Origin: Antedon mediterranea
Taxonomy: Eukaryota > Animalia > Echinodermata
Assembly (NCBI RefSeq): GCF_964355755.1
Contig: NC_092678.1
Span: 16,473,881-16,537,880, forward strand
Direction of reading: 5' to 3'
Length of the DNA: 64,000 nt
Shown: one piece after another, positions 1-64,000 of the stretch
Layout of the letters: the number at the start of each line of letters is the position of its first letter
Position numbering within the stretch: the first letter of the stretch is position 1
The notes under the pieces: model-generated
What the model was told of the DNA's origin: nothing
Seen by the model: the letters and a program-made list of their open reading frames with translations, nothing else
Database searches by the model: none
Position numbers and translations under genes: made by a program

Positions 1-3000
1 CGTCGTAGTCTGTCCAGTAAAGATAGTTTCCATAGATATCAATCCTGAACGGTTTATTCAGCCCAGTTATAATCTTTCTTCTGTTAGTTCCATCAAGGTT
101 AGCTTCCTCAATTAATTTACTGCTCAAATCACTCCAATACATCTTTCCAACTTGAGAATAGTGAAAAACAAAAATGAGAGAGAGAGAGACGTTTACGATT
201 GAATATTGTATTAAAGTTTTTAAAAAAAGAACATTTCAAGCACATGACCTTTTAGTAGGCACTTTAGTTCAAATGAAGAAAGGTTTTCAAGAAAATAATA
301 AATCACAATGTAAAACGTAAAAGAAAATCATTGAGAAAAGTGTACTCAACTGTAAGCATAGCTTAGATTATGGTGTCTGAGCAACATACTTTGTGCCTAA
401 CAAGTAAAAATATCATTATGCGCATGTTCATGCGCAGGGTTGTCTTTTTACTCGAAAGACGCGTGGCGCGTCGTTTGATTGCAAAGTCGTTAATAGGGAG
501 GTTTCGCAATCTTACGAATACGATAACGGAAACGGATACGTCACGCACACGTATTCGTTTTCGTAAGCCATAAAAAAATCTGTTTCGCATGGCAACGAAA
601 TATCGAGGCGCGTCCAAAATATGACTGCGGTAAATTTGAGCGAAGCGCAGGTACGTGTTGCTTGGTGCTTGGCTGCCTAGGCCTAGCGTAACATCAAAGC
701 GAGTGAGGACTTTAAAAACTGCTATTTATCTAAATTGACCTGGCATTTTAGTAAATTACTTTAGTAAATTACTTTCAATAAATCTATAATTATATTATAA
801 TCATGAATTCCTAATTCAAATGCAAAATGTGCAAAATAGATCAAAAACTTTTGTAACTCGTTTTGTAGTTACGAATATGACTGGTGATATTCGTCAACAC
901 GAATACGCTTTACGAATATGAAATGGGGATCAGCTCAAAAGTTTCACAAATGTATGACGTATCCGTTTTCGTTATCGTATTCGTAAGGTTGCGAAACCTC
1001 CCTAATGTCAGGAAGTAAAGTAAGACGCAGACTCTACTACATACATACATTGAATGTCAAAGTGATAACCCCACGTACATTTGACATGATTTTGTAGTAT
1101 CATGCACGAGAATTACATTGCTGAGCCAGTCACGAATGCGCACAAATTGATTACATATGGAGAGCGTGCACAAGGTTAGCTTAATTTTGTCAGTACATGC
1201 ATCATACTACATCTTTCCTATCTTGAAAATAGTATATCAACACAGTAAGGAAGAGAGAATGAATTCAATATATTGATAATATAGTTTGATCATATGCTTG
1301 CTTATTCTTATAAGTACAATTATGTTAAAATGTTCTTAAAACGGATTAGTGTGTACCAATAGCTTCACGATATAAAGAATATATTGTGTAAAATCCATAG
1401 CACTTATCAACCACCGCCTTGCCTAATCGGTATGTGGATAACAATAGACATAGGCCACGATATGTAATCGATCGTTGTTTTTGTCATTAAGCTCTACAGG
1501 CTCAAAAGTTGGTAACATTTTATATTTTAACCTACAAAGTTACTCCTGTTGCAGGTATAAATAAGCAATGTAATAAGCAATGTGGCCAGAAATGATCATG
1601 TGATTTATAGTAAGCGACTTTATGTACAGGCATCAATAATCATAATTATAAATAGTTAGCAATAGTCTACATAATACGGTAGTACTATTATATAACTTAC
1701 TTGCATTTAACATGGTCATACCGTAACTTACCGGGAACTGCTAAAACAAGTCCTTTTGCCTTTGTTACGTTTGTTACTAAGACGGTTCTTGTACTCAAGT
1801 CATTTAACTGCGCTCGCTCTATCCTGTCCTTTATTGTATCAGTCCAGTACAGGTATCTAAGTATAAGTATAATCTATGTTACTACATTCTGTTACAAGTA
1901 GTTCACGTCCTTTCCACAGATAAAAAATATATTGAAACTTACGAAGTTACTGAAGCTGATAAGTTATTAATGATTTACGAAAAATGTAAAAAGAAATAAA
2001 TCTTTATTACTTCCTTTTTTTAGTGGTATTAATGCATTATTATTATTACGTTTTTGCTTACTAATCAAAAGGAAGAACCAACAGAATGGAAATGTGAAGT
2101 TCATAGTTGATCTCCCTCCAACGTGAAAAGAGGTTTACTGTCTATATAAGGTGACATTACCCGTTAGATATATCAAACGTAACTAAAAAGAATTGAATAT
2201 AACTTTAATACGGCCAGTCTTTTACAAATATTAGTAATTAATTTAGTAAAAGTGGTTCAATACAGTGTAGCAGTGTATCACATGTGACACATGTATAAGC
2301 CTAACATAACTTTAACCATAACATAGTACAGGCGCCATGTGAAACATGTGGCAAGGTATTTACAGAATTAGCCTATACTGGACAGATTGTACGATACGGT
2401 GCAGAGAATCGGGTGTGAATGAAAAGTATAGAAGCTTCTTAAGTTGAGATGTTATTAATGAAATTCATTTCGTTGAATGTTTTAAACGTAAAGGCAATTC
2501 TTTTTTTAAACATTCTTATTATTAAATTTGAACGAACTGAAATGTGTGGTTTAGATGCATTAATAATATACAGAATACAAGTTCACCTGAGATGTGATCA
2601 CACAGTTCATTTCCTTTGGATGAGTGGAAAAAAATAGATAGATGTACGTTAAGAGAGAGTGACATACCCGTTAGCTGTATCTATCTCAATTGCATGTGGT
2701 TTTTCTAATCCTGTGTCAAACAAAATTGTTTTGTTTGTTCCATCCAGATTGATTACTTCAATTCGGCCTTCTTTTTTTTCTGTCCAATAAAGTTTTTTTC
2801 CAACTTCATCAACGGCTAAACCACGCACACCTTAAATAATGATGACAATTAAACAATTACTGCAATCCTAACCTATGCAACTTACTTTATATGCTATAGA
2901 CTAAAACTGTGTTAACACATTTCAAATGATGCTCAACCCTCGACTAGGGTTATGTATTTTATTTTACGAAACTTTAGCACGAGGACGAAAACGTTTAATT

Positions 3001-6000
3001 TAACGGATGACGTCAACAATAAAGCCCCATTCCCTACGTTTTTTAGATCTAATTTAAGATCACAAACTATATTTAATGTAAAAATAATACTATATGGTCC
3101 TATTGCGATAACTTTTTTCGTCTTTAAACAGTTAAAAATGTGAAAAATAAATCGATTCTAATAATTATAGCGGCCCGCTATAAATCCCAAAATGCATTGC
3201 GCGCGGATTGATATTTTTGTTTTTCACCTGTAATTCGCCCACTTCTATCGATCGTGAAGCCAAAACAAATGGAAGACTCCTAACTTTTCAGCGAAAATAC
3301 CGGGTTTTCCCTAATTTGTATCAACGGAGTCAGGCAAAAATAGAAAGACAATTAATGCAGCAACTATACAACGTCAGGCTAGGTATACAGCTAGCGTACG
3401 ATGTTCGTACGTTATCGATGTTTACCAGCTAGGCCTACAAAACTAAGCCTTGCTAGGCTAGGCCTAAGACCGTCCACGAGAGGTCGGTCGCCGCGAGCTA
3501 CTTAGGTAGTGCATTGTTTCTCACTTTTTATCATAATTTACCATAAAACGTACATTTAAGACAAGGAATGACATGGTTTAATGTTTTTAAAGTGATATAT
3601 ATGTATTATTTTCAAAAAAACGTTCCAAATTGCAGGGAAGGGGTCTTTAAGTTATTTGCATAACAGTGTAGTTCATGATTCAGCAGTTGCGATACCCTTT
3701 GGTTAACGTTTTTCACGTCGCTATTATTCAGAAATAAGGTTCACGACGCAACTAACTATAGTTGTTCGTAATGCAATTGCCCACGTAGAAAGAAAAAAGT
3801 ATGTTATATATATATATATAATTTAAGGCGTATCTTAAAAAAGCAAGGCAGTGTAATAATTGAACCGTACGATAATTTCTTTTATGAAAAGTTGTACATT
3901 TTATGATGGGAACATTATATAAGTTATGCGTTCGGAGGCCTAAAACAGATTCAATTTATTTTAATGTAGTTCAACATCGTAATGGTCGGCACTATTTTAG
4001 ATTATAAATTTCAAGAATCTGCAGATTTAGGTACAAACACGTTTTAGTGAGATTCCTTAGATATTAGTGAGTGACATTGCAAGAGATAGCTTGGGTTTTA
4101 CAAGAACATTGATCCTATTGCAGAGAAATAGTCATTAGATTTCGTGGCAATTTATTTACAAAAATAATTAGATAATGTCTTTATGTTTACAGAGCATGAT
4201 ATATTGATTGTATTCCATGTTGTTTTTAACAGTTACTTTTACTGGTTAGTTGAATTTTTTTGTAAAATTATGTTTATGATATTCATAATAATCTTATACG
4301 TTTATTTCTGTTATAGGTTTTATTATTTAATTATGTTCGGTGTTTTGATTCCTAGTGTTTATTGATTCTATTTTACCCTTTATTATCCCAGGTGTTTTGT
4401 TTAGTTCTTCTATGCAGTGGAAATGAAAAAAGAAAAATTTTTGTTTGCGAAAGCGGTATATAAAAGATTGGCCTATATAAATTACAAATATGCTGTAAAA
4501 TTGTTTAACTTCTCCTACTCTTTTGGACTAGGGGCTATCTTTCCTAACCTCACATCTGTCATCAACGCTTACTGAAATCTTTCGATTCAGGAATCCTAAA
4601 TCCGACCTCGTTATCTACAATTTCTGAAAAAATCAGAGGAATTGATAAATGGTGCTTATACTTACACCTTATGCAAAAAGAGGTAAAACGTAAATTCTTA
4701 ACGACATTATTTTAGTTTAGTATCCTCAAACGTTTAATTATGATTATTAAACAACAACGTTTAGTTCAACAACACTTGGTTCAACCTTGAAAAGGGTTGG
4801 TCTATTTAGGCGATGTAAATCTAACGAAATTATAAACGTTCAAAAAAATAAACATTAACAAAAAAATAAATTTCCTTTGCATACAATTTGATTTAAAAGT
4901 TAGCGAAACAAATGCTACAAAATATCATGATGCTTATTTTTCCTAATAAAACATTTAAAAATGAATAGAATATTACTAGAATTTGATCCCAAAGATACAA
5001 ACACTTCATGTTGGTTGGTGACAAGTGAAAACCGTTCAATTGTGTTGGTGTCGCCATCAGACCAATACAGTGTTAATCTGCTAATGTCATAATCAACAGC
5101 GTAGGGTTCAGTTAATCCGACATTCTGAATAACTGATGCTAAAGTCAAATTTGCGTTGTCACTGGAACTAAGGTTTGTCATATATATTCCAGGAGGATCC
5201 TCTTTGTTGACTACAAACATAACATCACCTGTATTATTAAAACATTAAAAAAAAAAAACGTTTACTTGAATAATAACACCTAAATAAACAATAAGTATAA
5301 CAAAATTAAACATTAACGCCCTAATTATTATTCTATTAAACATTAATTATTGGGATAAAGTTCTTTGCTGATTCACAAATAAATGCACGAACAAATCAAA
5401 TACAATACTTATGCACAAAACAAAAGCGATTTTGCAAAGTTCCAAAGGACTAAATCTGCTTCAAGAGGCGACTTACAGGTCCTAAAGTAATATTGGAATG
5501 TTTCTGTCGTTCTCTTAGTTATTTTGCGACACATTTAGTCTATATTATGTATTACCATCTGTTTAAAAAAAGTCTTTTAATATCAATTCCTTTAAATTTA
5601 AGTTTTAAAAATGTTTCTATTCGTATTTTTTTATATCGAGTGTTATATTGTAAAGAGTTTAACAAAGTTAAGTATTATAGATGTTTATATTTTAAAGGCC
5701 TCTGGATACTAGTTGGCCTGAGGATTCAGCTAGAAGGGTTACCCTCTCTAAATAAAGTGGAAACAAGTTAATAAAAAGACAACATCAAAGCCGATCTCTA
5801 CAAAATTATTAAAAGCATTCACTCCACATTTTCATTAACAGGTTTCTTACAAGCATTGTTCAGTCCCACTATCGCAATATTAAAACTGTAGTTACGCCTT
5901 ACGCGTCTTTTACACCTAAAAATCACCTTTTAACTTTTCATCTTCACGACGCGCAAGGCGCGGCAGCTTGGTTTCCATTAAATCGCTGCACTGTCGCTAC

Positions 6001-9000: not shown

Positions 9001-10826
9001 CAAGGTGTTCAGACACAACAATCACAACATTCCATGCCTGATCATTATTTCTATATTCAGATATTCATGACAAACGCACTACAGTTTACATTGTAAAGTT
9101 GTTTTTTGTTTAGCCACCTATATCCCCAAAAGACTCGTTCAGAAGCTTTATCAAGCGGAAAGCTTATTATCTACGGCTGACATTTTTTGGTATTTTGTAA
9201 ACTCGACTAATTGATAAGTCCAAGCTGCTGGACCAAAACAACGTCGGGGAAAAGAGAGTACAGTATATGAGTGATCACGGTTGAACGATTTTGGCTGACT
9301 TGACGCGAATCAACACAGTGAAGTGTACTGAGCAATGCATGTCCAACACACGCGAACATAATGTATTGCAATTCATTGACTATTAGTTTAAATAAACACT
9401 GTTTTTTATTTAATAAAAATGTAATATCATATTTGATTGAATTTTACAGTGTTGATATACAAAATATATTACTAAAAACCGTATTTTTAAAGTTCATACA
9501 ATTACTTACTGAGGGCAGAATTTATTTACTTCGTTCGTGGCTAAAAACGATTCGTTTCGGCAATGTTTTGGACTCTATTTTGAAAACTAGAAGTCAAATT
9601 TTCCTAATTCTTTTCTTTATTTTATTATTGATACAAAATATCAACTGACAATGCATGCATGCATCGTTATCTCTAGAATGCTGCTGATCAATGTTGAAGA
9701 AACTTAAAGACCCTTTATTTGCATACTTTCAGTAAGTTGCTTCAACATTTATCCGCAGCATTCTGCTACAGTCATCCATCATCTTTGTGTTTCTTGTTAG
9801 GTCACAAGCTACATTTTATGTACAGATAAATCCTATATATATATGGGCATATGGCGTTAAATGTTTGTTCGTCTTATACACAGTTAAAATGTGATAAGTC
9901 TAGGCAGGTCGGGTAGATAATTCTCTTTTAAAACAAGGAATCACCTAGTTTCATGTTTCAAAATGTATAATAAAAAAAAAATCTATTTTAAATTTAAAAT
10001 TTATTTTAATTCTCACAGTATCATTATAGTCGATATCTTTCTTACATTACATTCAAGTTATACTTCTATGAACAAAAATAATTATCGTAATTTCTATAAT
10101 TTTAATTAAAATATGAAAAAAATAACGTAAAAAGCACTAATTTACTTATAATACCGAATTGGGAGAAAATCATTGTTCGTCGGTATCTGGCGTTACGCCA
10201 GTTACCGACGAACAAAGTTCTCTAAAGTACAGTACTGCATTTTAGTGGATGTTTAACAAAGAATAATTAATCTTGTGAACAAATTGTCTCTATTTAACTT
10301 TATTATATCCTGGACATAATGTAATGGAAGTTACCAACTGTCGGCGATACAGTGTAGCGATTTAATGGAAATCAGGCTTCATGACGTGCCATTATTTTTA
10401 CTCAATATGCGTACATGTGGTAGATTGTATAATGCTTTAGGAAAAAATATGTAATACCATTATCTAGTTACCGATATATTTGATTAATTTACCGTCACCC
10501 GTGTGTGAACGAATAACAAGAACCACAGGGATAATAGAAATGTTAATGTGTAAATACATTTTGATTATTAAAAATGTTTAGTAATGTTAAAAAACTTAAT
10601 TCCGAAAACATTTTTTGTTAAATAATAACGAAGTAATTCATATTGAAATCGTAAAATACACAGTAGCCTACTTTGAAGGGCATAAAAGTTTTTTTCTCAA
10701 TGTAGAAGCAGTTGGTGGGAGATACATTTACATCATTGGTAAATACTAAAATAATATTAATAACGTACCTTTACTTAAATGTAGAAAGGTGGAAAGAAAG
10801 AAACAGATGAATTTCCAACAGGCCAT
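1..10826 (-). CDS. Paralogue A (3'-partial): secreted YWTD beta-propeller / C-type lectin family protein, exons 1-5
   Basis: Hand-spliced exons 10769-10826 (MACWKFICFFLSTFLHLSK-G, signal-peptide-like), 4977-5228, 2668-2830, 1732-1856, <1-150. All introns are GT-AG with matching phases (1,1,2,1). Motifs LYWSD, LYWTE, LYWTD, MYWSD and LYWTD are LDLR class B repeats. Collinear with copies B and C. Confidence 0.88.
495..1003. mobile_element. MITE with ~55-bp TIRs (AGGGAGGTTTCGCAA...TTGCGAAACCTCCCT) and 3-bp AAT target duplication; PIF/Harbinger-related superfamily likely
   Basis: The inverted ends are visible. The empty site gcaaagtcgcTAATgtcagg occurs in paralogues B (~25610) and C (~60111). 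Confidence 0.85.
3023..3646. mobile_element. Non-autonomous DNA element with short TIRs (AGCCCCATTCCCT / AGGGAAGGGGTCT) in a TTAA site; Kolobok-like
   Basis: Flanked by ATAA and TTAA. Copy C has the empty site aaacaTTAAgttatttgc at ~62736. Confidence 0.7.
6440..7040 (-). pseudogene. Disrupted Harbinger (HARBI1-like) transposase
   Basis: Recognisable catalytic motifs (GAxDGKH, RARRxIENAxG) interrupted by frameshifts, deletions and stops. Confidence 0.8.
7648..7830. repeat. Short tandem duplication (~76-bp unit plus partial)
   Basis: agcatactgtaagttgtaatacttaaaacatattttatatatgacacagta occurs twice, followed by a partial third copy. Confidence 0.7.
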
Positions 10827-10952
10827 TTTTTTAAACAATCTAACTTCACAGTCTGTTAATAAACAATGTTCAATTCAATTACGTTGTCAAAAACGAATGT
10901 GCAGCTATCACACGGTCGCAATATTATAACTAACGCTATTGTCATGACGTCA
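10827..10952 (-). promoter_or_regulatory. Putative 5'UTR/core promoter of paralogue A
   Basis: A ~115-bp block upstream of the ATG is conserved with 35393-35500 of B. It contains a TATAATA element ~100 nt upstream of the ATG. A TGACGTCA palindrome lies at 10945-10952. Confidence 0.4.
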
Positions 10953-11309
10953 TTTGTTTTTCACTTTGGGCGTTGCGCGTACGATAGGCAGGCTGAGCAA
11001 AATCTATATTAAATGGTATCGTGTGAGATATTTATGCAGTTTTTATCATGTATATTGTTATTTGTAACCCTTAGGGTGAGTTTGAATTATAGTCAACAAT
11101 TAATATGTTGTGCCGGGATTTGCGTGTGGAGTCTTTTTGTTGTTTCACCTTTTGAATTATATAAATTGTTTGTTTAAGCAGTTTCATATCTCTAGGCATC
11201 GCTCGTTATTATGCCGTTTGATTCGAGTCGGCGTACGTGGTCTAATTCTTTCTACTATTATTTACTTCTTTCCCTTTTCAGGGAATTTATTAGTTCAATG
11301 AATATTGAC

Positions 11310-12085
11310 CTTTGGCCCTAATACAAACAAATAAAAAATAACTATAACTTAAGATAATGATTTCTTCTTTCAAAAGCAAAGTAGACGTATTTTCCTAAAT
11401 TATAAGTAAAGTTTGTGTTGGAAAGTAATAAACATAGCTTATTAATAGAAGGAAAAACACGAATAATTCTTGGAATAAAACTTTTTCTGAATCATTATAA
11501 AATGTGCATTGCAAAATAAAATGATATTCATCCTCAATAATGTTCTTTTTACATAATATACACGTTCTCTTATACCTTCCTACACCCTCCCATCTGCCCT
11601 TTTCAATTTCTAGCTCTAATATCCCGAAACGTAACTTAGTTAATCATTTTCTTTGTTTAAAATGAATGATTTTGGTCAAGTGATAACTAAAACATATTTC
11701 TTTTTTATAAAGAGAAAAGAGCCTTAACTTATTATGTAAACTAAATGTTTGAATGCATTTTTGTTTTCAATATCACATAAGCGCAACTTAAATTCTCTCA
11801 AAAAATAAACCTTTACTATTAACATATTGTTGTAACCATATACAACCAAAACCAGTAGAAAAAAGTAAGTGTTTGACCTGTTGTGCCCAACAATTCTCAT
11901 TACGGTTAACTTTTCTAAGTTGAAACTCATAACACTTAAAAATGAATCTGTCATGATCTAAAGTAATACAGTAATATGTAACCAAAATCTTATAACTGTA
12001 ACTAAACAATCCAAAGAAAGTGGTAATCTACCTAACTCAGAAGTAACAGTAATAGAGGGGGTAGTTCCAATCCAATTTTTTATAT
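11310..12085 (-). mobile_element. 3' remnant of a non-LTR retrotransposon ORF2 (RTE-X-like)
   Basis: Minus-strand fragments TTPSITVTSELGRLPL...IRFWLHI and KLRFGILELEIEKGRW...RTCILCKKNIIEDEYHFILQCTFY match the typical C-terminal zinc-knuckle of such LINEs. Frames are broken. Confidence 0.7.
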
Positions 12086-14119: not shown

Positions 14120-14305
14120 GAACATCATAAGACATAACGTGAAATCAAATGTAATATTTAAGCAATACGCTGGATTGTGCAAATTTTTACCGAACATCAT
14201 AAGACATAACGTGAAATCAAATGTAAGATTTAAGCAATACGCTGGATTGGGCAAATTTTTACCAAACATCATAAGACATAACGTGAAATCAAATGTAAGA
14301 TTACA
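14120..14305. repeat. 72-bp tandem repeat, ~2.6 copies
   Basis: aacatcataagacataacgtgaaatcaaatgtaa starts at 14121, 14193 and 14265. Confidence 0.85.
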
Positions 14306-15235: not shown

Positions 15236-16776
15236 TTAGCAGCAGTCTTTTTTCATTTTCAAAACTCCATTATACTTCAGGCCACTGTCATCATCTGTTG
15301 AAAAGATAGAAATGTGTTAAATGAGCACAGTAGCATAAAACCTAATCATCATTATCACAAAAGTATATTATTGCCAGTTAATTAGTTGATTTCGTATGAC
15401 CAAAAACTGGTTATTTCGTTCTATTCAATGATCAGCCCATTTTAAACATTTACGATTGTGGCACTTAAAAAAATACACTGTGGTGTAATTATTTCAGTTT
15501 TCAAACACTAAAGCAAAGACAGGTAGCTCAAGTTTGACCAATCACAAGCGACAGTTCAGATGAGGCGTAGCTAAGTGATTGGTCAAATTACTCGCATTGG
15601 ACGTACATGACAGTGAGACCTTAGTGGGAGATAAATAATGATATAAACTCACACAGCCAGTCGTTTTCACTAGTTCCAGCCGTCTTGAAGTCCGGCAAAC
15701 TTTTTGTCAAAGAGTCCCAGGCGCCTTTACTGATAAAAACCCACGTTGCACCATGATCTTTACTGCGCATGTAACTGCGCATGTCCATGTGAATGCCATA
15801 GATGAGTCCTGTGAGCTGGTCAGATCCAATGACATTGTGTAGGTTCATTGGTAGAGCTATTGAAGAATATTTACATTTTTATACATATTAAAATAATAAT
15901 AGTGTAGGGATATATTTTTCATTTTAACATAAGAAAAATATTAATATAGGCCTATGCAATGTTCTGTTTATGTGCCTTTTTTTTAAATCGAAAAAAGTGA
16001 AAAAAAAAAGAAATTCATTGTTGTGTGGTCGCTATAAGCATTCAAGGAAAGCTGTAATGACAAAAGAAATGTAGGCACTACGCCTAACTATTCATTTTCT
16101 CCGAAAATCTCCGGGAGACAATGTCAGTGTTAGCCCTATTACTTATCGATTTATCAAGTTGGAGATTCCTCTTGCTGTCCATATCGATGTGTATGATAAC
16201 CCGTGGAAGTAAGTATGGAAGGTTTTGATATATCAGCCAGCCTCAATTTGTGCTATTATATGAGGGACATTACGTAAACAATCTTCATTGTTTTACCTTT
16301 CCAGCGTCCATCTGGTGGATTAGCTTGTACATAGCAGGACGGAACAAGCTTGTCTGATAGACGTCCAACTGAAGGGTTACAAGCAAAAATGACGTCATTA
16401 TCCGGATCGTCCAACTTCTTAGTTATGACAAAACCCCGGTCATAATAATCTGTCAAAATGATACAAACAAATCGATGAATTGTATTAAGTGAAAAATATC
16501 TTAAGTGTTGATTCTTCGACAAGTTTCTAAAAGTGAGACAGATAAAACCATGTTAAGTAGAAACGAGTCGTGCTCGGGGATATTCGTTTAGACTAATTTA
16601 GATATGTTTCAACAGTACTGAGACATGTATTGTAGATTGAGAAGTATTCAATACTTATATATATATAAACAAATCAGGCAAAGAACATTAATTCCAAACC
16701 GCCCGGTGATATACTGAAATTTAATTAATTAATTTGAAACGATAAAGATGAGGAAATCTGTGAGAATGAGAAAACA

Positions 16777-16840
<64 letters not shown>

Positions 16841-29663: not shown

Positions 29664-29696
<33 letters not shown>

Positions 29697-47450: not shown

Positions 47451-48062
47451 ACTTTTTCTCATTCTCACAGATTTCCTCATCTTTATCGTTTCTAATTAAT
47501 TAATTAAATTTCAGTATATCACCGGGCGGTTTAGAATTAATGTTCTTTGCCTGATTTGTTTATAATAATATATAAAAGTATCTCTTCGGAGATCCCGCCT
47601 CCTGAATAAAAATACTGTAAGATTAGGGCGTATCAATTTGATCTCTGGTGCGCGTGCGTACAACTGAGGACTAGTGCTGTTCCGCCGTACCACGCCGAGA
47701 ATGTTAAAGAGTCGCTATCCAATTGAGTTCGAACAATACCATGAAAGCCCCAGTGGTCTAATGGCTAGGACATCTGCATATCAATCAGGCGGTCCGAGTT
47801 CGAGTCTCGGTTGGGGCGACTTTTTCTCATTCTCACAGATTTCCTCATCTTTATCGTTTCAAATTAATTAATTAAATTTCAGTATATCACCGGGCGGTTT
47901 AGAATTAATGTTCTTTGCCTGATTTGTTTATATATATATATATATATAGGCAACTTTTTCTCATTCTCACAGATACCTCATCTTTATCGTTTCAAATTAA
48001 TTAATTAATTAAATTTCAGTATATCACCGGGCGGTTTAGAATTAATGTTCTTTGCCTCTTGT

Positions 48063-48110: not shown

Positions 48111-48160
48111 CCAAAGGCAAATTACTGAGAAAAATGACAATGCTGTGGGTATCAGTGGCT

Positions 48161-48208
<48 letters not shown>

Positions 48209-50187: not shown

Positions 50188-53100
50188 TTAGCAGCAGTCT
50201 TTTTTCATTTTCAAAACTCCATTATACTTCAGGCCACCGTCATCATCTGTTGAAAAGATAGAAATGTGTTAAATGAGCATAGTGGCATAAAACATAATCA
50301 TCATTATCACAAAAGTACACCCTTGCCAGTTGATTAGTTGATTTCGTATGACGTAGAACTGGTTATTTCATTCAATTCAATGGTCAGCGCATTTTTACCA
50401 TTTAAGGCCCATTTACACTAGGGCGATAACGATCGACGATAAAATAGGTAAACATACATTTTTCTTTAATAAAACAAAATAAATTAGGGTTTTCGTTCTA
50501 GAACTATAGGATAATCATTTATGGTGTATTAAAAAAACATTTTTTTTAAATCTAATCAAATGACGTCATGATCAATAAAAACAAGAAAATCGTTGTATTA
50601 TCACGATATTATTGCTCTTACTAATCATGACGTCATTTTATTGGACGTGTGGAAATATTATTGTCATCTAAGGCAGCATAGATGATAATCCTATAGTTCT
50701 AAGATGAAAACTTTTTAAAATTCTCTTTGTTTTAGTTTTAAAAAATGCATTTTTATCTTTTTCATCGATCGTTATCACCTTAGTATAAATGGGCCTTTAA
50801 GATTGTGGCACTTAAAAAAACTCACTGTAGTGTAAAGCAAAGACGGGTAGCTCAAGTTTGACCAATCACAAACGACAGTTCAGATGAGGCGTCAAATTAC
50901 TCACATTGGACGTATATGGCAGTGAGACATTAATGGGAGCTAAATAGTGATATAAACTCACACAGCCAGTTGCCCTCACTAGTTCCAGCCGTCTTGAAGT
51001 CCGGCAAGCTTTTTGTCAAAAAGTCCCAGGCGTCTTTACTGATAAACACCCACGTTACACCATGATCGTTACTGCGCATGTAACTGCGCATGTCCATGTG
51101 AAGGCCATAGATAAGTCCTGTAAGCTGGTCAGATCCAATGACATTGTGTACGTTCATTGGTAGAGCTATTAAAGAATATTTATATTTTGATACATATTAT
51201 AATGATAATAGTATAGGGATATATTTTTCATTTTGACATAAGAAAAATATTAATAATATGCAATGTTCTGTTTATGTGCCTTTTTTTTAAATCGAAAAAG
51301 TGAGAACATGAAAGTCATTGTTTTGTAGGCGCTAAGCATTCAAGGAAGGATTTATTGAGAAAAGAAATGTAGGCACTACGCCTAACCATTCATTGATAGT
51401 TGTCTGCAAATCCAAAAATCCCAGGGAGACAATGTCAGTGTTAGGCCTATTACTTATTGATTTATAAAGTTAGAGATTCCTCTTGCTGCCCATATTGATG
51501 TGTATGATGACCCGTGGCAGCAAAGCTCCAAGTATGGAAGGTTTTGATATATCAGCCAGCCTCAGGTCAGTGCTATTCGTTGAGGGACATTACGAAAACA
51601 ATCGTCATTGTTTTACCTTTCCAGCGTCCATCTGGCGGATTATCTTGTACATAGCAGGACGGAACAATCTTGTCTGATACACGTCCAACTGAAGGGTTAC
51701 AAGCAAAAATGACTTCATTATCCGGATTGTCCAACTTCTTAGTTATGACAAAACCCTGGTCATAATAATCTGTCGAAATAATACAAAAAACATCGATAAA
51801 TTAATCCACAAGGCCTTATTCATCGATTAATTACATTGTGTGGAAAATATCTTGTTGATGTCGTATTGATGCTTCATAAACATTGCTAAAAGTCATATGG
51901 ATAGAAACCAAACCATTACTGCTCCTCGTCTATGGAATGCTCTACCGAGCTCTATCAGATTTTGCAAAACTGTTGATACTTTAAACAAAATATTAAAAAC
52001 ACATTTATTCATTAAGGCATATGGAAATCATGAGGTTTCTTAAAGTTCTAGAATTGTATAGTATACTTTTTCCTGACCAGCATTATCTTTGGGGTGCCTC
52101 TGTCTTGGTTGTTGTCTCTGAGCACCCGGTCGTCTGTGGCAAGGCAAATGTGTATCCTGTTCCTTTGTTTGGTCACCTAGGTAGGCGTCCGGGACCGCGA
52201 CAGAACGAGAACGGATGGGGACCCTCCAAAGAAATTGCATTTTATTTGTCGTGCATTTGCATGATTTGTTTTATTTTTTTGAATGCGCCTTGAGCACTCT
52301 TGAGTGGTATGTGCGCTATAAAAATTCTGTTATTATTATTATTAAACCATGTCAAGATGATAAAATAGGAACGAGGAGTGCTCGAGGAGTGTATAATAAC
52401 ATTATACTACTCTGTTTTGTTTAGGTAGTCATAATTTTAGGAGTTCTTGTCTATTTTTTTATATAGGTTACGCGTCAGTGTTGACAAAGTAATTTGAGTT
52501 CATAAGCAACTTGTGATATATTAGCTATACCGTCAGGCTCTTTATTCCAAACTTACCTGGAACTGGGCATTTACTAGGATCACTGACACACACAGTATGT
52601 TTCCCGTTTTCACACTTATGAGCACCAGCCACGCAAGCATCGCACTGGCTAGATGCCCCATCATAATGGCAGACGTCTGTCTGAGATTTGGTCCATTTGC
52701 TGTACCTCATCACAGCCTCTTTTGTAGGTCCTAGTACTGGTTCTGGTGTACCCTCATCTGAAGAAAATACTGGTTCTGGTGTTCCCTCATCTGAAGAAAA
52801 AGTATATAATAATGGAAATACTTTCTCTTATTTTGCTGAAACTCTTTTTCTAATAGACAATATTTGTGTGCTACTTTATTACAAAATTGCAGTTGTAACT
52901 ATTCTAAAGGTATATTGTGGCAACCAAGTGCCCAATCTCAACGCAACAATTTGTCCTTAGGTCAAAGTTTAAAACATTATTGCATTTATCCTATAATTAT
53001 CCGATTTGAATGTGGTTATTATCGGTTAATTTTTCTGCAGCGGAATCAGTTAAACCCCATTTCCACATGAACTTTATCGGTTAATTATCGGTTAAGTTTA

Positions 53101-56100
53101 TCGGTTAAGGTTTATCGGTTATTGTTTGGCTGCTCTGCAACATGGTCTTGTGCAGTACGTAAGAACCATGGATTTAGCGTACCGTGTTCAAAATCTAACA
53201 TATGATACTCGCAGATAGCTGGTAGGATAGCGGTGCAGTCCATTATGTCCCAGTCACCAAGATCAGTACGGACATCTCTTGTATCGTAGACATCTACAAA
53301 AGCCGCAGCTCCGCAGTCTTCAGTCAGACTTGTTCCGGGTCTGTTTGGTAGCCATTTTGTAAAAGACGCCGATGACCCGTTTGTCCACTTGAAAGTATCA
53401 GTACCCTAGAACATATAAATTGTTATAATTGAAGTCATAAGAAGTATTATAAACGGCATGCCATGTGATTAATAATAGACATGTCCTGTCAAAGTAAGTT
53501 ACGTCCCCTTTCTCGTGTAGTTAGCATGGCCAGTTCATTACGGTGATTACGAGTGACACGGGGTCTGATAGCCATTCTCACCCCAACGTCTTTCAGCCCA
53601 ATCCAGTATTTGTATGGCGAGAGTGCTGGAACGAGGTCGCGAAGAAATTGCTGTTCAAACGTATCTTCAATCATGACTAATTGCGCATTGTCTGCTTCAC
53701 AGGCCGCCTTTGCTGCATCCCAAGTTTCTAGCGTGTCGTTGAACACTTTGTAACACGTTTCTTTGTAAGGTGTGTAACCAGACCGACATAAATCTAGAAG
53801 TACAGTGTAAGAGTCATAGAGTAATTATTATCAGCTGATTCATGTTTGTAAGAATCATAGACATACTCTTAATTACAACGTAATAGATCGATGACATGTA
53901 AACTTGTATCAACGAAAGTTGGTTTGGTCGAGGAAGTCACCGTTATGATACACATGTGATCCTGTATCTACAACTTATCTATGTTACAGGGTGAATTGTC
54001 GATACTTTACCGATATTACAATCATTATAAACATAATTCAGATTTGATAAGAATGGCTTTATGTTGTGAAATTTTTTAGGCGCCTTATGTTTAAAAACAG
54101 CAGTTAAAATACGGCACATGCAATCCTCACAACCTGGTGAGATGCGCCTAATATTCATTTAAACATGGTTAGAATATATGCAGACAATGTATAACTCTTT
54201 CAGATTACACTTACCACCACCACCAACATCTGGTCTTTCCGAATACATAAATTGAAAAGGTTTTGTGCAAGAAAGAACTTTAGCGCTATTAACAGTCGAG
54301 AACCACAACAAATCAGCCACGCCAACAAAGCGACGAGTGCCCGGAGCAGTTTTTCCGTTTTTGTCGATTCCTAGGCGTACACGGAAAGTTGGTTTTGCGG
54401 CAATCTGTATGGTTCCAAGCTGTGAAATACATGCGAAATGTTACTACGTCTGTCTTTGATTTCATTTAGAAAACCCCTGTCGACTTATATCATAAGTCAT
54501 TAAAACAGAGAAGGTTACATTTCATAAATATGTACGTTAATGTATTCTGAACTTGTTACACTGAAGGTACTACACTGGCCATCCACCCGTTTCCTAATCT
54601 TTAAAAATGTATCAGCGCTGTAGGTAAACACCTAACATACTTAAAAGTACTCTTCCAGCTGACTGTGGGCACTACACATAATTAAAGCTGTTGATTGTAG
54701 AATAACTTACATTAAATCGAACAGGAGATGGTCCAGGCATGTTTGGGTTTACCGCTGGTGACTGGAACAGCTCTGTGTATTCTGATTCAAGTTTAATATA
54801 TTGCACATTTTTCGACTTCAATATTGTGAAAGTTACATCTACTGCTTTTCCCGTTGAATCGTCATCGTGCCAAATACTAATCAGTATTATTACATCATCG
54901 CTGAAAATAACAACCAACAAATACTATTATCGAAATTAAATTAGAGTGGTACCACAATCACTATATCCCAATACTTATAGGATGCCAAGAGTGATTATGT
55001 GAACATATCTGCCGTACTTTGAGAAAAGGGCTTATCTACAAAAAGCTATTTTTTAGTAATTGACAAAAACAAAAACCTGTTTTTGTTTTTCATTACCAAC
55101 GTTCATGTAATATTTTATTTTCAAATGAATATATTTCAAAAGTACATTATTGAAAAATATCTGACATAATATTCAATTATTACTTTTTTATTTTGGGAGT
55201 CAAATTGCAGATAAAGCCTTTTTCCAAATTAGTTGTACTTAAAAATGGCGGGAAATACCTTGAAAACCTTTGCAGTTATTTTCTTTTTTTTAAATCAAAA
55301 TTTACCAAAAGATTTAGTAACTTTAGTTAAAATAAATTATAAATGCAATTTAGATTAGGTAATTTGTAAAAAGGCTTTTCTACTGAAAGTATTAATCTGC
55401 CTCATTATATATTCATCATACCGTTATCTGATTTTGTCAAACGACTCAAATGCCAAATGCCGCAGCCCAAATGTCAAATGCTTATGTACAAATTGGTTAC
55501 ATTTAAAATTCGTCAAACATGAACAATGATTGACAACGATCAAATACGACGAATGCAATTGTTTGCCAATTAAATAATGCACATCACAATTTCTGATAGT
55601 GTTCGCTAGTGTCAACTTGAACCATTCTAATTGATCTTATTTCATCCATACAATTCTACAATAATCAGAACAATTACTCTTACATTGCTTGTATCCAAAA
55701 CCAAACTTACCCTTTATAAAAGGAATTAAATTCGTATGTTATCTTGAACGACATCTTAGGCTTCGGAACTTCATTTATCAGCGTATAAACTGGTACTTCT
55801 CCAACCCAGATGTGAGCTCCGTCGCCATTCTGCATTCCAAGTCCTAACCAGTGCTCTGATCCATTGACCACCGCGTCTGTATCGTCTAGGACAACTTCAA
55901 TTTCTAACGCCAAGATGTTATTGTAAGCATCTGGGTCATTCACTTCAATAAATCCGTCAAACTGTGTCACCGACCAGTCTTTAAGGATGCCGAAATCATC
56001 ATCGTTAGCAATGTACTGCGTCTGAGGAGCGTAGTAGCAGAACTCTGTCGAATATGTACACGATAAGGAGTCACTGACATACGAAACGGACACTTTGCTG

Positions 56101-59100
56101 ATACTCCACTGCTCGCTTGTCTTGTTAGTCGTAAAGTTGTATGGTAGTGTGACTTCAATTGTAGGATCAGCGGTACCTTTTGGAAACTCAACAATAAGGT
56201 TCATATGCACCTTTTGCCCAACGTTAACATAAACATTGCCATCTGCAGACTGCTCAGTGATGTTCATCACGAAATGCGGTAGTTTACTAAAAACTGCGTT
56301 TGACACTCCTTCTGCGGTGACTAAGCCATTGAATATGTCAGTTAATTCAGCAGTTATAGTTACACGTAAAATAACTCCAGGTTTTACATCGGCTACAAAG
56401 AAATTTATATAACAACAATAAATATAGATTATTATTGTATGTCTAAAATAATGCAAATTAGGAAGACATTAAAACTATAATGTTCACTTCAAAGACGTAT
56501 TGGTGTTATATTTCTTGTCAAATACATGCCTTAAACTACGAAAGCATAGTTTTTGTTAGCACTTGCTGACATAATTACGATTTTGTACAACAAAGCGATG
56601 TATACAGTTACCGGAGGGATCTATAGGAACTGTTATAATGTGATATGGTTGGTTGGGGTCTGCACATTAATTCATAATACTTTTACAAAAGAATATCAAT
56701 TTGATAATAAATCTGATCTTATACGCTAACGACATCGGTTTTATAGGAACAAGGATGTGGTAACACTCATTTGGGTTCAAAAGCTTACAGTGTAATTTAT
56801 TATTTTGGCTAAAAAAAAAAAAGATTCGGTTAAAATACCATTAACAGTGGAATTGATGGTTCCCTCAAATTGAATGTCAGATGAAAATAAACTGTTATTA
56901 CTAAAGGACAAAGTAATTTCTGATGCGGAGACCAGTGTGACCATGAAGTTACTCTGAAAAAATACAATGAATCCGTTAGGAGTGGAGCTGTGGCTTGGTG
57001 GTTAGGAGTGGAGCTGTGGCTTGGTGGTTATGATGCTTGGCTACCAATCTAAGGGTCCTGGGTTCAAGTCCTATCATATGTCAGGGTTTTTTTCTCATGA
57101 CAATTTACAACTCCACTCCCAAAGACTTAATAATAAGTCTTTGTTTATGTAGAGCATCTTGTGTATATGTTTGTCTTGTGAAATTTTAAATAGTTTATCC
57201 ATCCTGTAATTGGCGGGTTACTCGCTGTTGGATGAGTATGAAATAAATAAATAAATAAATAAAAACATCTCATAGCAAATCTGACTTAAAAATAAAAACA
57301 CAGTAGATCGGTCAAATGAAGAAGAAACCCAGCAATAGGTAAATATCTTTAGCGGTAATGTAAATAGAATCTCTGAGATTAAAGTCGGCAAAGTCGGATC
57401 TTCTACTTCATTTTTTCCGCACGCCCAACCAACAATTATATTATAGAGAAAAGAACTATATCTATTGTTTTACATACCATTACATTAAGTTGTATTTAAT
57501 TATTTTACTGCTAAAATCACACGTCACACTATTTATTTTGACCACAACTTTACCCCGTTAACCAATATTTTAAAAAAATACAAATCAAAATCATACCGTC
57601 ATGGTTGACTCGATGTTTCCGTTTCCTGTTAAAGTCCATATAAAAGGATCTGCAGACAGGTTGAACTGAAAAAAGATGTTTACTATAAATACCCGATTAT
57701 CAGTGCTGTATCTAGATTTGCCCAGTTTCATAGGAATAGTTGGTAATACAACATCTCATGTGTTTCACATGTTTCTCATGTGATAATAATAACCAAATAT
57801 TCCTCTCATACTTGGAAACTACATCTCGTAAATACAGCACTGAGAATCGGGTAATAATTACATCCAACCGGTATTTAGTATTATATACATGTTCCACGTG
57901 TGTTATTTTTTGGATAAACGAACGTATACGTATATTTATCCATGTCGACACACGACACATGAATTCGTAGCTTGTTTCTTTTGGCCAAATTCATTTTACG
58001 TACGTCAGTAGGACAGACAAATGTGATCCATTGTTCGCAGTAAGCTTATGTTGGATTTATTTAAATTTTTGTTCTTGTTTATGTTTTTAAGAACTCAGAA
58101 CTTCACTGATGAAATATGATATACAAATATATTTTCAACAATTTTAATTAAAAATCTCAATGGTATAGTTAATACAAAACGCATAGAAAATCCGGATCAC
58201 GCACATGTGACGTATGCGCGAATTTCACCCATTAAGCGACTACGAAGTGTTCCTTTTTAGTTAATTACCTCCATATTCTCAGCTGTAAGGGTGACTTTCA
58301 AGCCTTTTCCTGACCCAGTAGTGTTCACCAAGAAATCTGTCTTCACTTCATCTCCAATTCCGTAGTAGGTTGTTGAATCTTCTACGGTTGCTCCCGCATC
58401 CACGATGATGATGGGAGCTGAAAGTATAAGTTCAGCAATAAACAATTAGATAATAACAATAAAAATAAGAACAATTATTATACAAATAATTAATGTTTAT
58501 TCCTTGAAAAACTGACTACACTATTTAACGAGGCATAATTGACCAATAACAATTTCAAGAATACATTCAGGTGCATTATAAATGTATCTTTGCGATGGTC
58601 TGCTATCAGATTATTTACAATCAATTTGTAATCAATTACATGTTATATCGTTTTTTAATAGTTAAATGTGTCATCAAAAGGATATTGATTAATTTTGTTT
58701 GCATAATTATTTCGTTGTGTCCAACCTAATAGTTTGTTGGCAATACTATTTGAATAAGTTTAAAAGTTTAATTCAGAATCATAATATTTTAAAAACAATT
58801 ATTCATTATTAATTTAAAGCTTGGTTCCCATTAGAAAATACATCCTCGCGTTGTGTTTGATTTTTGGCAGAATCCATTACTACAGAACGGGGAAGATACG
58901 GTAAAGTTATTCACAATCGCCTCTATTTTGGGTTTATCATTGAAGCAAAACGAAAAAATCTGCGCGCAATGCATGCCGGTATTTAAAGCTAGCCGCTTAA
59001 ATTATTATAATCCACTTCTTTTTCAGTTTTTACCCGTTTAAAACAACAAAAAGCACGCAATATAGGCCCATTTAGGGCTCATTAAAAAAAAATGTAGTCT

Positions 59101-62100
59101 ATACACAATATTTAGGGAAAATATCTTATTTCTATCAGCTCATAGTTTAATATGTTACTCTCCAATTCTCCACTATGCGTTTGAATCACAACACGAAAAT
59201 ATTTCGTCGATTTTAAATAATTTCGGGAACTGAGTGAACATCGCGTCCAATTTCGTCCTAAAGAGTGTTTTTACTAGCACATTTGACTTAATTGTAAATG
59301 TAGGTACTTAACAAAGGTAAATAAAAAATGGGCTTTTTGATCACAAATTTACTTTACTATTAACAGGCCTATACTGAAATAGAAATATAAAAGCAACGCT
59401 AATGGAACGTGTGCCATTTGCATCTTTAACAAAAATTTGAGTTAGCAATTTAATTTGAATATTTGAATATTAAAATAGAATATTTACTTTTTAAAATATA
59501 TAATCCTCTTGGATTATTAAGTCGACTATCACTACTTTCCTTTGATGATACTCCAGTTGTTATATTAACTCGATATATACCACCAGATGTGTCTGTCCAG
59601 TAAAGATAGTTTCCATAAATATCTATACCCCACGGGTAATCCAGCCCAGTTATAATCGTTCTACTGTTAGTACCGTTAAGGTTAGCTTCCTCAATTAACT
59701 TACTGCTCCAATCACTCCAATACATCTTTTCATCTTGAAAATAATAAAAAAAAAACAAAAATGAGAGAGAGAGACGTATACGATTGAATACTGTACTTGA
59801 ATAAGCGTATAAAGTTTTAACAAAACGAAAATTTCAAGCAAGTGACCTTTTAGTAGGCGCGCAAAAATGGATTATCGTGCAATTAGTTTAAATGAAGAAA
59901 AGTTCTCAAGAAAATAAATCACAATGTAAAACTAAAAAAAAAAATAATTGAGAAAAGTGTACTCAACTGTAAGCATAACTTTGATTATGGTGTCTGAGCA
60001 ACATACTTTGTGCTTAACAAGTAAAAATATCAGTATGCGATGTTCATTCGTTTCTGAACGTGCGCAGGGTTGTCTTTTTACTCAAAAGCCGCGTGGCGCG
60101 TCGTTTGAACGCAAAGTCGCTAATGTCAGGAAGTAAAGTAAGACGCAGACTCTACTATATCCAGTACATTGCATGTCAAAGTGATAACCCCACGTACATT
60201 TGACATGATTTTGTAGTATCATGCACGAGCATTACATTGCTGAGCCAGTCACGAATGCGCACACAATGCTTACATATAGAGAGCGTGCACATTGTTAGCC
60301 TAATGTTGTCAGTACATGCATTATATCTACTACCGGTACATCTTTTCTATCTTGTAAATAGTATATCAACACAGTAAGGAAGAGAGAATGAATTCAATAT
60401 ATTGATAATATAGTTTGTTCATATGCTTGCTTATCCTTATTATATTATAAGTGTTAACAAGTCAAATTATGTTAAAACGGTTTAGTGTGAATATATGTTG
60501 TAACATCCATAGCACTTATCAACCACCGCCTTGCCTAATCGTTATGTGGATAACTTTAGACATAGGCCACGATATGTAATCGATCGTTGTTTTCGTCATT
60601 AAGTTCTACAGGCTCAAAAGTTGGTAACATTTTGTTTTTTAGCCTACAAAGTTACTCCTGTTGCAGGTATAAATACGCAACGTGGCCAGAAATGATCATG
60701 TGATTTATAGTAAGCGACTTTATGTACAGGCATCAATAATCATGATTATAAATAGTTAGTAAAAGTCTACATAATACGGTAGTACTAGTCTACATAATAC
60801 GGTAGTACTAGTCTACATAATACGGTAGTACTAGTCTACATAATACGGTAGTACTAGTCTACATAATACGGTAGTACTAGTCTACATAATACGGTAGTAC
60901 TAGTCTACATAATACGGTAGTACTAGTCTACATAATACGGTAGTACTAGTCTACATAATACGGTAGTACTAGTCTACATAATACGGTAGTACTAGTCTAC
61001 ATAATACGGTAGTACTAGTCTACATAATACGGTAGTACTAGTCTACATAATACGGTAGTACTAGTCTACATAATACGGTAGTACTAGTCTACATAATGCG
61101 GTAGTACTAGTCTACATAATACGGTAGTACTAGTCTACATAATACGGTAGTACTAGTCTACATAATACGGTAGTACTAGTCTACATAATACGGTAGTACT
61201 AGTCTACATAATACGGTAGTACTAGTCTACATAATACGGTAGTACTAGTCTACATAATACGGTAGTACTAGTCTACATAATACGGTAGTACTAGTCTACA
61301 TAATACGGTAGTACTAGTCTACATAATACGGTAGTACTAGTCTACATAATACGGTAGTACTAGTCTACATAATACGGTAGTACTAGTCTACATAATACGG
61401 TAGTACTATTATATAACTTACTTGCATTTAACATGGTCATACAGTAACTTACCGGGAACTGCTAAAACAAGTCCTTTTGATATTGGTACGTTTGTTACTA
61501 AGACGGTTCTTGTACTCAAGTCATTTAACTTCGCTCGCTCTATCCTTTTGTTTCCTCTATCAGTCCAGTACAGGTATCTAAGCATAAGTATAATCTATGT
61601 TACTACATTCTGTTACAAGTAGTTCACGTCCTTTCCACAGATAAAAAATATATTGAAACTTACGAAACTACTGAAGCTGATAAGTTATTAATGATTTACG
61701 AACAATGTAAAAAGAAATAACTCTTTATTACTTCCTTTATTGAGTGGTATTAATGCATTATTATTATTACGTTTTTGCTTATAATCAAAATGAAGAACCA
61801 AAAGAATGGAAATAATGTGAAATTCATAGTTGATCTCCCTCCAACGTGAAAAGAGGTTTACTGTCTATATAAGGTGACATTACCCGTTAGATATATCAAA
61901 CGTAACTAAAAAGAATTGAATATAACTTTAATACGGCCAGTCTTTTACTAATATTAGTAATTAATTTAGTAAAAGTGGTTCAATACAGTGTAGCAGTGTA
62001 TCACATGTGACACATGTATAAGCCTAACATAACTTTAACCATAACATAGTACAGGCGCCATGTGAAGCATGTGGCAAGGTATTTACAGAATTAGCCTATA

Positions 62101-62547
62101 CTGGACAGATTGTACGATACGGTGCAGAGAATCGGGTGTGAAGTATAGAAGCTTCTTAAGTTGAGATGTTATTAATGAAATTCATTTCGTTGAATGTTTT
62201 AAACGTAAAGGCAATTCTTTTTTTAAACATTCTTATTATTAAATTTGAATGAACTTAAATGTATGGTTTAGATGCATTAATAATATACAGAATACAAGTT
62301 CACCTGAGATGTGATCACACAGTTCATTTCCTTTGGATGAGTGGAAAAAAATAGATAGATGTACGTTAAGAGAGAGTGACATACCCGTTAGCTGTATCTA
62401 TCTCAATTGCATGTGGTTTTTCTAATCCTGTGTCAAACAGAATTGTTCTGTTTGTTCCATCCAGATTGATTACTTCAATTCGGCCTTCTTTTTTCTCTGT
62501 CCAATAAAGTTTTTTTCCAACTTCATCAACGGCTAAACCACGCACAC
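50188..62547 (-). CDS. Paralogue C (5'-partial, exons 3-17) of the same YWTD/C-type lectin gene
   Basis: Exons 62385-62547, 61453-61577, 59488-59733, 58269-58417, 57597-57665, 56839-56953, 55711-56392, 54711-54900, 54215-54419, 53582-53793, 53183-53405, 52557-52790 (or -52757), 51617-51769, 50962-51165, 50188-50246. Exon sizes and phases match B except exons 6 and 14 (in-frame indels). The last bases of the window match the intron just below exon 2 of A, so exon 2 should lie immediately beyond 64000. Confidence 0.9.
50405..50796. mobile_element. PIF/Harbinger-type MITE, TIR AGGCCCATTTACACTAGG..., TTA target duplication
   Basis: Inverted ends of ~35 bp with TTA on both sides. Absent from intron 16 of B (~15450). 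Confidence 0.85.
51850..52345 (+). mobile_element. 3' end of an L2/CR1-group LINE
   Basis: Encodes APRLWNALPSSIR...ILKTHLF, the typical L2/CR1 ORF2 end. The 3' tail is gcgccttgagcact...gtgcgctataaaa + (ATT)n. Absent from B. Confidence 0.7.
56975..57265 (+). mobile_element. tRNA-derived SINE with duplicated 26-bp head and (AAAT)n tail
   Basis: A-box-like TGGCTTGGTGG, B box GGTTCAAGTCC and tail aaataaataaataaataaat. The empty site is in B at ~22365. Confidence 0.8.
60764..61407. repeat. Minisatellite, 23-bp unit AGTCTACATAATACGGTAGTACT x28
   Basis: Exact 23-bp period with one variant base near 61098. A has a single unit at 1664-1686. Confidence 0.97.
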
Positions 62548-64000
62548 CTTAAATAATGATGACAATTAAACAATTACTGCAATCCTAACCTATGAAATTT
62601 ACTTTATATGCTATAGACTAAAACTGTGTTAACACATTTCAAATGATGCTCAACCCTCGGCTAGGGTTATGTATTTTATTTTACGAAACTTTAGCACGAG
62701 GACGAAAACGTTTAATTTAACGGATGACGTAAACATTAAGTTATTTGCATAATAGTGTAGTTCATGATTCAGCAGTTGCGATACCCTTTGGTTAACGTTT
62801 TTCACGTCGCTATTATTCAGAAATAAGGTTCACGACGCAACTAACTGTAGTTGTTCGTAATGCTTGCCCACGTAGAATAAAAAAGTATGTTTATATACGG
62901 TATACATATAATTTAAGGCGTATCTTAAAAAAACCAAGGCAGTGTACATTTTATGATGGGAACATTATATAAGTTATGCGTTCGGAGGCCTAAAACAGAT
63001 TCAATTTCTTTTAATGAAGTTCAACATCGTAAAGGTCAGCACTATTTTAGATTATAAATTTCAAGAATCTGCAGATTTAGGTACAAACAAGTTTTAGTGA
63101 GATTCCTTAGATATTAGTTAGTGACATTGCAAGAGATAGCTTGGGTTTTACAAGAACATTGATCCTATTGCAGAGAAATATTAATTAGATTTGGTGGCAA
63201 TTTATTTACAAAATAATTAGATAATGTCTTTATGTTTACAGAGCATGATATATTGATTGTATTCTATGTTGTTTTTAACAGTTACTTTTACTGTCTGGTT
63301 GAATTTTTTTTGTAAAATTCTGTTTATGATATTCATAATAATCTTCTACGTTTATTTCTGTAGGTTTTATTATTTAATTATGTTCGGTGATTTGATTCCT
63401 AGTGTTTATTGATTCTATTTATCCTTTATTATCCCAGGTGTTTTGTTTAGTTCTTCTATGCAGTGGAAATGAAAAAAGAAACATTTTTGTTTGCGAAAGC
63501 GGTATATAAAAGATTGGCCTATATAAATTACAAATATGCTGTAAAATGGTTTAACTTCTCCTACTCTTTTGGACTAGGGGCTATCTTTCCTAACCTCACA
63601 TCTGCCATCAACCCTTACTGAAATCTTTCGATTCAGGAATCCTAAATCCGACCTCGTTATCTAAAAAATCAGAGGAATTGATAATTGGTGCTTATACTTA
63701 TAACATAACCTATGCAAAAAGAGGTAAAACGTAAATTCTTAACGACATTATTTTAGTTTAGTATCCTCAAACGTTTAATTATGATTATTAAACAACAACG
63801 TTTAGTTCAACAACACTTGGTTCCACCTTGAAAAGAGTTGGTCTATTTAGGCGATGTAAATCTAACGAAATTATAAACTTGCTACTAAATAATTAGGCCT
63901 ATTCTTAAAAAAAATAAACATTAACAAAAAAATACATTTCTTTTGCATACAATTTGATTTAAAAGTTTGCGAAACAAATGCTACAAAATATCGTGATGCT

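Follow-up and report, generated by a model that had tools for sequence, protein, structure and literature searches.

Does a crinoid gene family use a YWTD propeller as the variable part of a set of secreted recognition proteins? This question is raised by a stretch of 64,000 nucleotides from Antedon mediterranea (contig NC_092678.1, positions 16,473,881 to 16,537,880), hereafter the window, for which a sequence-only reading had proposed a tandem family of proteins with a variable YWTD head, a constant lectin tail and a signature of diversifying selection. A six-frame scan and a self-comparison revealed three tandem copies of one gene in the window, all on the minus strand and in the order C, B, A, which bears out the family itself. 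Each gene encodes a predicted N-terminal propeller, and positive selection has very probably acted on the sites predicted to form the top face of that propeller.

Placing exon boundaries at GT/AG splice sites gave gene models for exons 1 to 17 of copy B, exons 1 to 5 of copy A, which is cut off in exon 5 by the window start, and exons 3 to 17 of copy C, whose exons 1 and 2 lie beyond the window end. All internal intron ends are GT or AG, and no premature stop interrupts the frame of any copy. Copy B is an intact 17-exon frame of 1,095 residues, running from 35392 to 15236 on the minus strand, as do all exons given below. Its domain order is a likely signal peptide, a YWTD propeller (residues ~21 to 280), a stalk, a C-type lectin-like domain (CTLD, residues ~750 to 890) and a Cys-rich end. 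The exon 16 donor was set with the help of homologues, and the splice from exon 1 to exon 2 was placed using A/B conservation and a signal-like N-terminus at the equivalent place in the relative P0009. Exon 1 encodes the predicted signal peptide in B (35335..35392) and in A (10769..10826, with an ATG and a GT donor, homologous to exon 1 of B). The most hydrophobic 19-residue window of B starts at residue 8, at the N-terminus, with a maximum hydropathy of 1.4; the N-terminus is likely a signal peptide and the protein likely secreted. The same hydropathy scan of B found no transmembrane-like window.

The propeller is encoded by exons 2 to 5, located in B at 32705..32953, 30071..30233, 26757..26881 and 24966..25211, the last three of which match Pfam Ldl_recept_b (E=9e-9, 5e-5 and 6e-7, respectively). 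The corresponding splice models are 4977..5228, 2668..2830, 1732..1856 and the truncated 1..150 in A, and, for exons 3 to 5, 62385..62547, 61453..61577 and 59488..59733 in C. Six YWTD-type repeats were located. The AlphaFold2 (AF2) model of the paralogue P0007 has a predicted local distance difference test score (pLDDT) of 83-97 per 10-residue block over residues 21-220, and a structure search superposed its propeller on LRP6 with a root mean square deviation (rmsd) of 1.3-1.6 Å over ~205 residues. Foldseek returned 3sob and 3sov for the same model at 1.3-1.5 Å rmsd and 39% identity, and VIA Z scores were 25-29 for LRP4, ApoER2, LRP6, nidogen and LDLR. Repeats, Pfam matches, the P0007 model and fold searches thus agree on the full YWTD propeller that had been proposed. 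The fold and the assignment of its faces remain predictions, drawn from the AF2 model and from motif offsets taken from LRP6.

[quoted passage not shown] For the present family, a top-face class of 47 of the 262 propeller sites was defined, made up of the four residues that follow each YWTD-type motif (only three in the final blade) and, for each P-x-G/A motif, positions -2 to +1 relative to its P. Across A, B, C and P0007, variation is seen at 39 of these 47 sites, against 47 of the 215 others (p=4e-15). Split by position, variation affects 39/47 top sites, 11/41 sites in the bottom loops and 35/173 other sites; since the bottom loops vary far less, loop exposure alone does not explain the pattern. 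Variable residues are concentrated on the predicted ligand face instead of being scattered over the fold, as the earlier reading had expected. More distant propellers likewise differ most at top-face sites (p=4e-11).

The proportion of nonsynonymous differences (pN) at top sites is 0.40, 0.27 and 0.44 in the three pairs, against proportions of synonymous differences (pS) of 0.18, 0.09 and 0.13 over the head. The corresponding ratios of top-face nonsynonymous divergence (dN) to head synonymous divergence (dS) are 2.9, 3.6 and 4.6, with 0.33-0.47 at the remaining sites. Selection models were fitted to A, B and C with our own GY94 code, using a star tree and per-exon branch lengths. In the fixed-site model, the dN/dS ratio omega is 4.21 for the top class (profile interval ~2.5-7.5) and 0.35 for the rest; the likelihood-ratio test (LRT) against omega_top=1 gives 31.8 (p=1.7e-8), and omega_top=1.5 is rejected as well (2dL=16). 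The random-site comparison of M2a with M1a, which is blind to structure, places 12% of 261 codons in a class with omega2=7.0 (p=3.6e-4), and all 14 sites with a posterior above 0.8 belong to the 47-site top class (hypergeometric 6e-12). Both models thus gave a site class with omega above 1, which the sequence-only reading required.

The hand codon counts on which that reading had relied proved exact on recount. Between A and C, exon 4 differs by 8 amino-acid-changing codons and no silent one (11/125 nt), with 3 differences in the last 124 nt of intron 3 and 7 in its last 200 nt; between B and C, exon 3 has 13 changed codons and 1 silent one. The variable exon 5 motifs are also as quoted. As proof of selection, these counts do not suffice, because the A/C comparison adjoins the edge of a gene-conversion tract. 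They are marginal when taken singly (P(0 silent of 11)=0.04; P(<=1 of 17)=0.058; 11/125 versus 3/124, p=0.026), and they are the two most extreme of 10 pair-by-exon comparisons over exons 2-5, pS exceeding pN in 7 of the 8 others. Over the whole head, dN/dS is 0.65 (A/B), 0.79 (A/C) and 1.04 (B/C); the excess over chance emerges once sites are split by predicted propeller position.

Variation at the same loops was observed in genomic contigs from four runs in three studies, aligned to exon 5 of C at 80% likeness (64, 101, 105 and 3 contigs per run). Among the best 40 of 129 variant rows, 20 fall in the 15 top codons out of 81, and 17 of these 20, taken as single changes, replace the amino acid. 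The multi-allelic positions among these best 40 rows, six in number, all lie in or beside two top loops of this exon (59585-59589 and 59627-59631). Contigs of five runs extend over introns, with no exon-to-exon joint among those listed, and are neutral as to expression. This points to the existence of more divergent copies than the window contains, the contig counts not being copy numbers.

The copies have a mosaic history. A tract of ~900 nt in A (2101..3000, partner ~61820-62720 in C) shows 11 differences in 894 aligned nt and includes exon 3, where A and C differ at 3/163 nt; similarity then falls off through intron 3 and exon 4, and close to exon 5 each 100 nt holds 10-20 differences. A recent event of gene conversion or recombination likely left this near-identity. 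Of the 56 sites that differ around exon 3, 50 separate B from A and C, whereas exon 5 shows no grouping; this shift implies that the copies are mosaic and that local neutral rates vary along the gene. Conversion as the whole cause of the contrast between head and tail was considered and rejected, B/C intron divergence being fairly even along the gene (0.098 in introns 3-5 of the head, 0.074 in introns 9-13, around exons 9-13), which indicates that the contrast is mainly selective. The intergenic segments 10416-15012, 34698-37783 and 48195-49957 are homologous between copies, so that the duplicated unit takes in both upstream and downstream flanks. False assembly duplication was rejected, since the three copies are distinct and carry different intron insertions. 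The sequence-only reading had also raised the alternative that the copies are pseudogenes; it was rejected in view of their open frames and an omega of 0.34-0.35 in framework and stalk.

Beyond the propeller, copy B comprises the stalk (exons 6-11, 19064..23887; exons 23887-23742, 22740-22672, 22343-22229, 21676-20995, 20155-19966 and 19268-19064), the CTLD (exons 12-13, 18007..18618; exons 18618-18407 and 18229-18007) and the Cys-rich C-terminal part (exons 14-17, 15236..17612; exons 17612-17424, 16449-16297, 15856-15653 and 15294-15236). The equivalent regions of C are 54215..58417 (exons 58417-58269, 57665-57597, 56953-56839, 56392-55711, 54900-54711 and 54419-54215), 53183..53793 (exons 53793-53582 and 53405-53183) and 50188..52790 (exons 52790-52557, 51769-51617, 51165-50962 and 50246-50188). 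B and C share 76% of their residues in the head and 79% in exons 6-8; the figure rises to 94% in exons 9-11 and 97% in the CTLD, and is lower again in exon 14 (81%) and exons 15-17 (89%). The "constant lectin tail" of the sequence-only reading is therefore apt for exons 9-13, which are near-constant (94-97%), and exons 12-13 do differ at 5 of 145 residues between B and C, as it had stated; it fails for exons 6-8 and 14, which diverge (79-81% identity). Silent divergence is low in exons 10-13 of B (18007-20155) versus C (53183-54900), with 6/195 sites or 0.03 against 0.074 in the flanking introns (p=0.025), which hints at exon-limited homogenisation or at constraint on silent sites. Exons 14-15 have an omega of 2.1 with very few silent changes; their pN of ~0.08 is close to the intron rate and they are thus read as near-neutral.

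The stalk of ~470 residues is beta-rich and matched no Pfam family at the cut-off. Residues 205-502 of B contain no Cys, so that the post-propeller stalk is without EGF cysteines, and the Pfam scan of P0007 returned no EGF match after the propeller and no LDLa match. In the AF2 model of P0007, residues 245-390 form a beta-rich domain of moderate confidence, the part beyond it being low (pLDDT mostly below 50). For exon 9, the ESM Atlas gives DUF11-like clusters as look-alikes (score 0.93-0.95), and for the C-terminal part, which is Cys-rich with an Asp-box-like motif and a terminal CC, BNR/sortilin-like ones (<=0.84); both sets serve as leads. Exon 14 of C begins with a 33-bp duplication (52735-52800), which adds a second acceptor and gives rise to an EGTPEPV-like linker repeat; B has none of these repeats, C two and P0007 three.

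The CTLD itself was recognised by Lectin_C in P0007 (E=3e-16) and in exon 12 of B (E=4e-8), and it carries the WIGL motif and the conserved cysteines; its PDB matches are CTLDs of the mannose-receptor family. Sugar-binding CTLDs carry EPN or QPD and WND motifs of calcium site 2. Here RPG aligns to the QPD of aggrecan and the EPN of MRC2, and WDI to WND. Since both motifs are missing, classical calcium-dependent sugar binding by this domain is judged unlikely from its sequence. The domain is moreover internal (~750-890 of 1,095 residues). Phase-1 introns bound propeller exons 2-5 and CTLD exons 12-13 each, and such boundaries would be predicted if the two were exon-shuffled modules.

We searched for relatives of the family using exon 9. 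The four protein clusters that this search returned are all crinoid, three of them belonging to Antedon mediterranea and one to Anneissia japonica; in plasmids and metagenome contigs it had no match. The stalk was likewise matched only in Antedon and Anneissia, the word-based nature of these searches making this weak evidence of restriction. P0007 (1,086 residues) has the same head and tail as the copies of the window and lies on a contig other than that of P0001 and P0002. A related tail occurs under an F5/8-type-C head in P0003 and apparently headless in P0002. Related propellers occur on other bodies: P0009 (529 residues), P0010 (EGF-like tail) and, in part, P0013 (HYR repeats). Copy C appears to be split among the RefSeq models P0001, P0005 and P0006. 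P0005 equals C at 263 of 263 residues; the last 216 residues of P0001 are identical to C and its upstream part differs, and P0001 may be a chimeric model drawn from a neighbouring copy. RefSeq fragments of the family carry the names 'LRP6-like', 'cueball-like', 'snaclec-like' and 'uncharacterized'.

The copies are spaced by ~32 and ~27 kb and separated by repeats and transposon debris. A broken long terminal repeat (LTR) retrotransposon remnant lies between C and B (38309-41026, plus strand; RT_RNaseH_2 E=7e-25 at 38309-39124). Intron 3 of B holds an insertion (28800-29862, minus strand) with a weak GIY-YIG match (E=0.11), which we take to be Penelope-like from its motifs and whose high contig depth suggests a common repeat. 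A fragmented DDE_Tnp_4 (Harbinger-like) transposase remnant lies in intron 1 of A (6400-7130, minus strand; one piece E=3e-4). Intron 4 of C contains a 23-bp minisatellite (60757-61408; 28 copies, 99% identity), of which A and B have about one unit at this place. A dispersed, partly tandem repeat of ~365 bp (17049-17305, 30797-31507, 44527-45090 and 47046-47944) often adjoins (TA)n runs and reaches very high depth in the genomic contigs.

The family shares its six-bladed YWTD fold with the LDL-receptor-family propellers (LRP6 E1, LRP4, LDLR, nidogen). Unlike LRPs, it has one N-terminal propeller without a following EGF module, LDLa repeats or a transmembrane helix, and it is multicopy with a positively selected propeller face; it is not an LRP receptor. 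The letters of the LRP-type pocket, at positions that we assume to correspond, are mostly retained in Antedon P0009 and differ among A, B, C and P0007. An organisational parallel is offered by the gastropod VIgL lectins (FREP, CREP, GREP), secreted and diversified proteins whose N-terminal part varies while the lectin-type domain at the C-terminus, a C-type lectin in CREPs, is conserved (PMC5433772). Like them, the window family is a diversified multigene family with a variable N-terminal head, its secretion being predicted from hydropathy; unlike them, it varies a YWTD propeller and not an IgSF domain, and its CTLD is internal and non-canonical. According to PMC13428168, amphioxus VCBPs are secreted proteins diversified in the germline, varying in copy number and between alleles, with a variable head on a constant module, and sea-urchin SpTransformer and Toll-like receptors (TLRs) are germline families expanded by duplication and recombination-like restructuring. 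V-type Ig and chitin-binding domains, characteristic of VCBPs, were absent from the Pfam scan of P0007 at E<=0.1. The sea-urchin families show a similar echinoderm germline expansion with unrelated domains, the window family being known here from its genes. A full-text literature search, which covered few subscription papers, returned no description of this family or of any positively selected YWTD family, in line with the sequence-only reading, which had recognised no named system. The family is thus apparently undescribed and on an unusual scaffold.

What might such proteins do? Gene structure, tandem duplication, mosaic history, purifying selection on the framework and the top-face class with omega above 1 were observed; from these we infer, with about an even chance of being right, germline-diversified secreted recognition proteins with an immune role, binding fast-changing foreign surfaces of microbes or parasites. 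Duplication and gene conversion would spread and shuffle the copies, and selection would keep or create differing binding faces, so that each copy could bind different ligands. The conserved exons 9-13, with stalk and CTLD, and the terminal CC might form a common effector or oligomerisation end, or hand the ligand over to host cells, the whole molecule acting like an agglutinin or an opsonin. In its mode of action the family would resemble FREPs and VCBPs, on a new scaffold. A rival reading is gamete or egg-coat recognition, the variable face then changing in step with partners on sperm or egg envelope under sexual conflict or for species recognition. Echinoderm gamete proteins, among them bindin and suREJ receptors with their CTLDs, also typically show positive selection on a binding face. 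The diversity seen here is spread across many paralogues in one genome and not across one locus between species, and we regard a gamete role as unlikely. A component of mucus, adhesive or matrix (tube-foot food capture, larval attachment, skeletal matrix), with the stalk and CTLD as scaffold and differing heads sticking to differing particles or substrates, is doubtful as well, though it draws on several observations: the occurrence of the tail with an F5/8-type-C head in P0003 and seemingly headless in P0002, the propeller beside HYR repeats (P0013), and the resemblance of the stalk to DUF11 clusters, which is a lead. Echinoderm adhesives and matrix commonly contain F5/8-type-C, HYR and similar domains. 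CTL and 'LDL-receptor-like' proteins are also reported from the crinoid skeletal proteome (PMC7351957); a motif search of its supplement text yielded no sequence by which to place these skeletal CTLs inside or outside this family. Structural roles rarely drive an omega near 4 on one face.

The selection signal could also be an artefact, relaxed constraint on an unused face combining with patchy conversion and multi-base mutations to mimic selection. Conversion is indeed evident, whole-head dN/dS is 0.65-1.04, and several further points weigh against the immune recognition proposal and the selection on which it builds. Once the model permits multi-base mutation rates, the LRT of the random-site comparison is reduced to 6.4 (p=0.04). 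The top-face class was set after the A/B/C alignment had been seen, using motif offsets that we presume to match the top-surface contact residues of LRP6; within this class, B/C is the one pair with a significant excess of pN over pS (p=0.03, against 0.39 for A/B and 0.18 for A/C). The test rests on three recombining sequences and on our own code instead of codeml. The stalk and C-terminal part were modelled by AF2 at low confidence (mean pLDDT 32 for the tail by itself), and nothing in the analysis links the family to immunity specifically. Relaxation, however, would bring omega near 1, yet pN on the top face amounts to 3-5 times the divergence at synonymous sites and in introns, and the data reject an omega_top of 1.5. 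Comparable variability is not seen in the bottom loops, and the top loops also differ in P0007 and among contigs from other samples. In the introns, doublets are barely more frequent than expected (45 adjacent differences observed, 39 expected). An artefact thus appears improbable, and positive selection on the predicted top face remains the strongly favoured explanation.

YWTD propellers are conserved ligand platforms of developmental and endocytic receptors. Crinoids are the sister group to all other echinoderms, and to our knowledge their recognition genes have been little studied; in public annotation, this family is obscured by fragmentary RefSeq models. We tentatively propose, as the less probable outcome for now, that crinoids turned the YWTD propeller into a germline-encoded "variable domain" of immune recognition, in the form of a phase-1-bounded, exon-shuffled cassette on a constant stalk-CTLD body, present in at least 10 copies, its face diversified by duplication, gene conversion and positive selection. 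The defined variable sites and the compact propeller module make tests of ligand binding direct. If the proposal is true, the YWTD propeller would join Ig, LRR and lectin domains as a scaffold of animal recognition repertoires.

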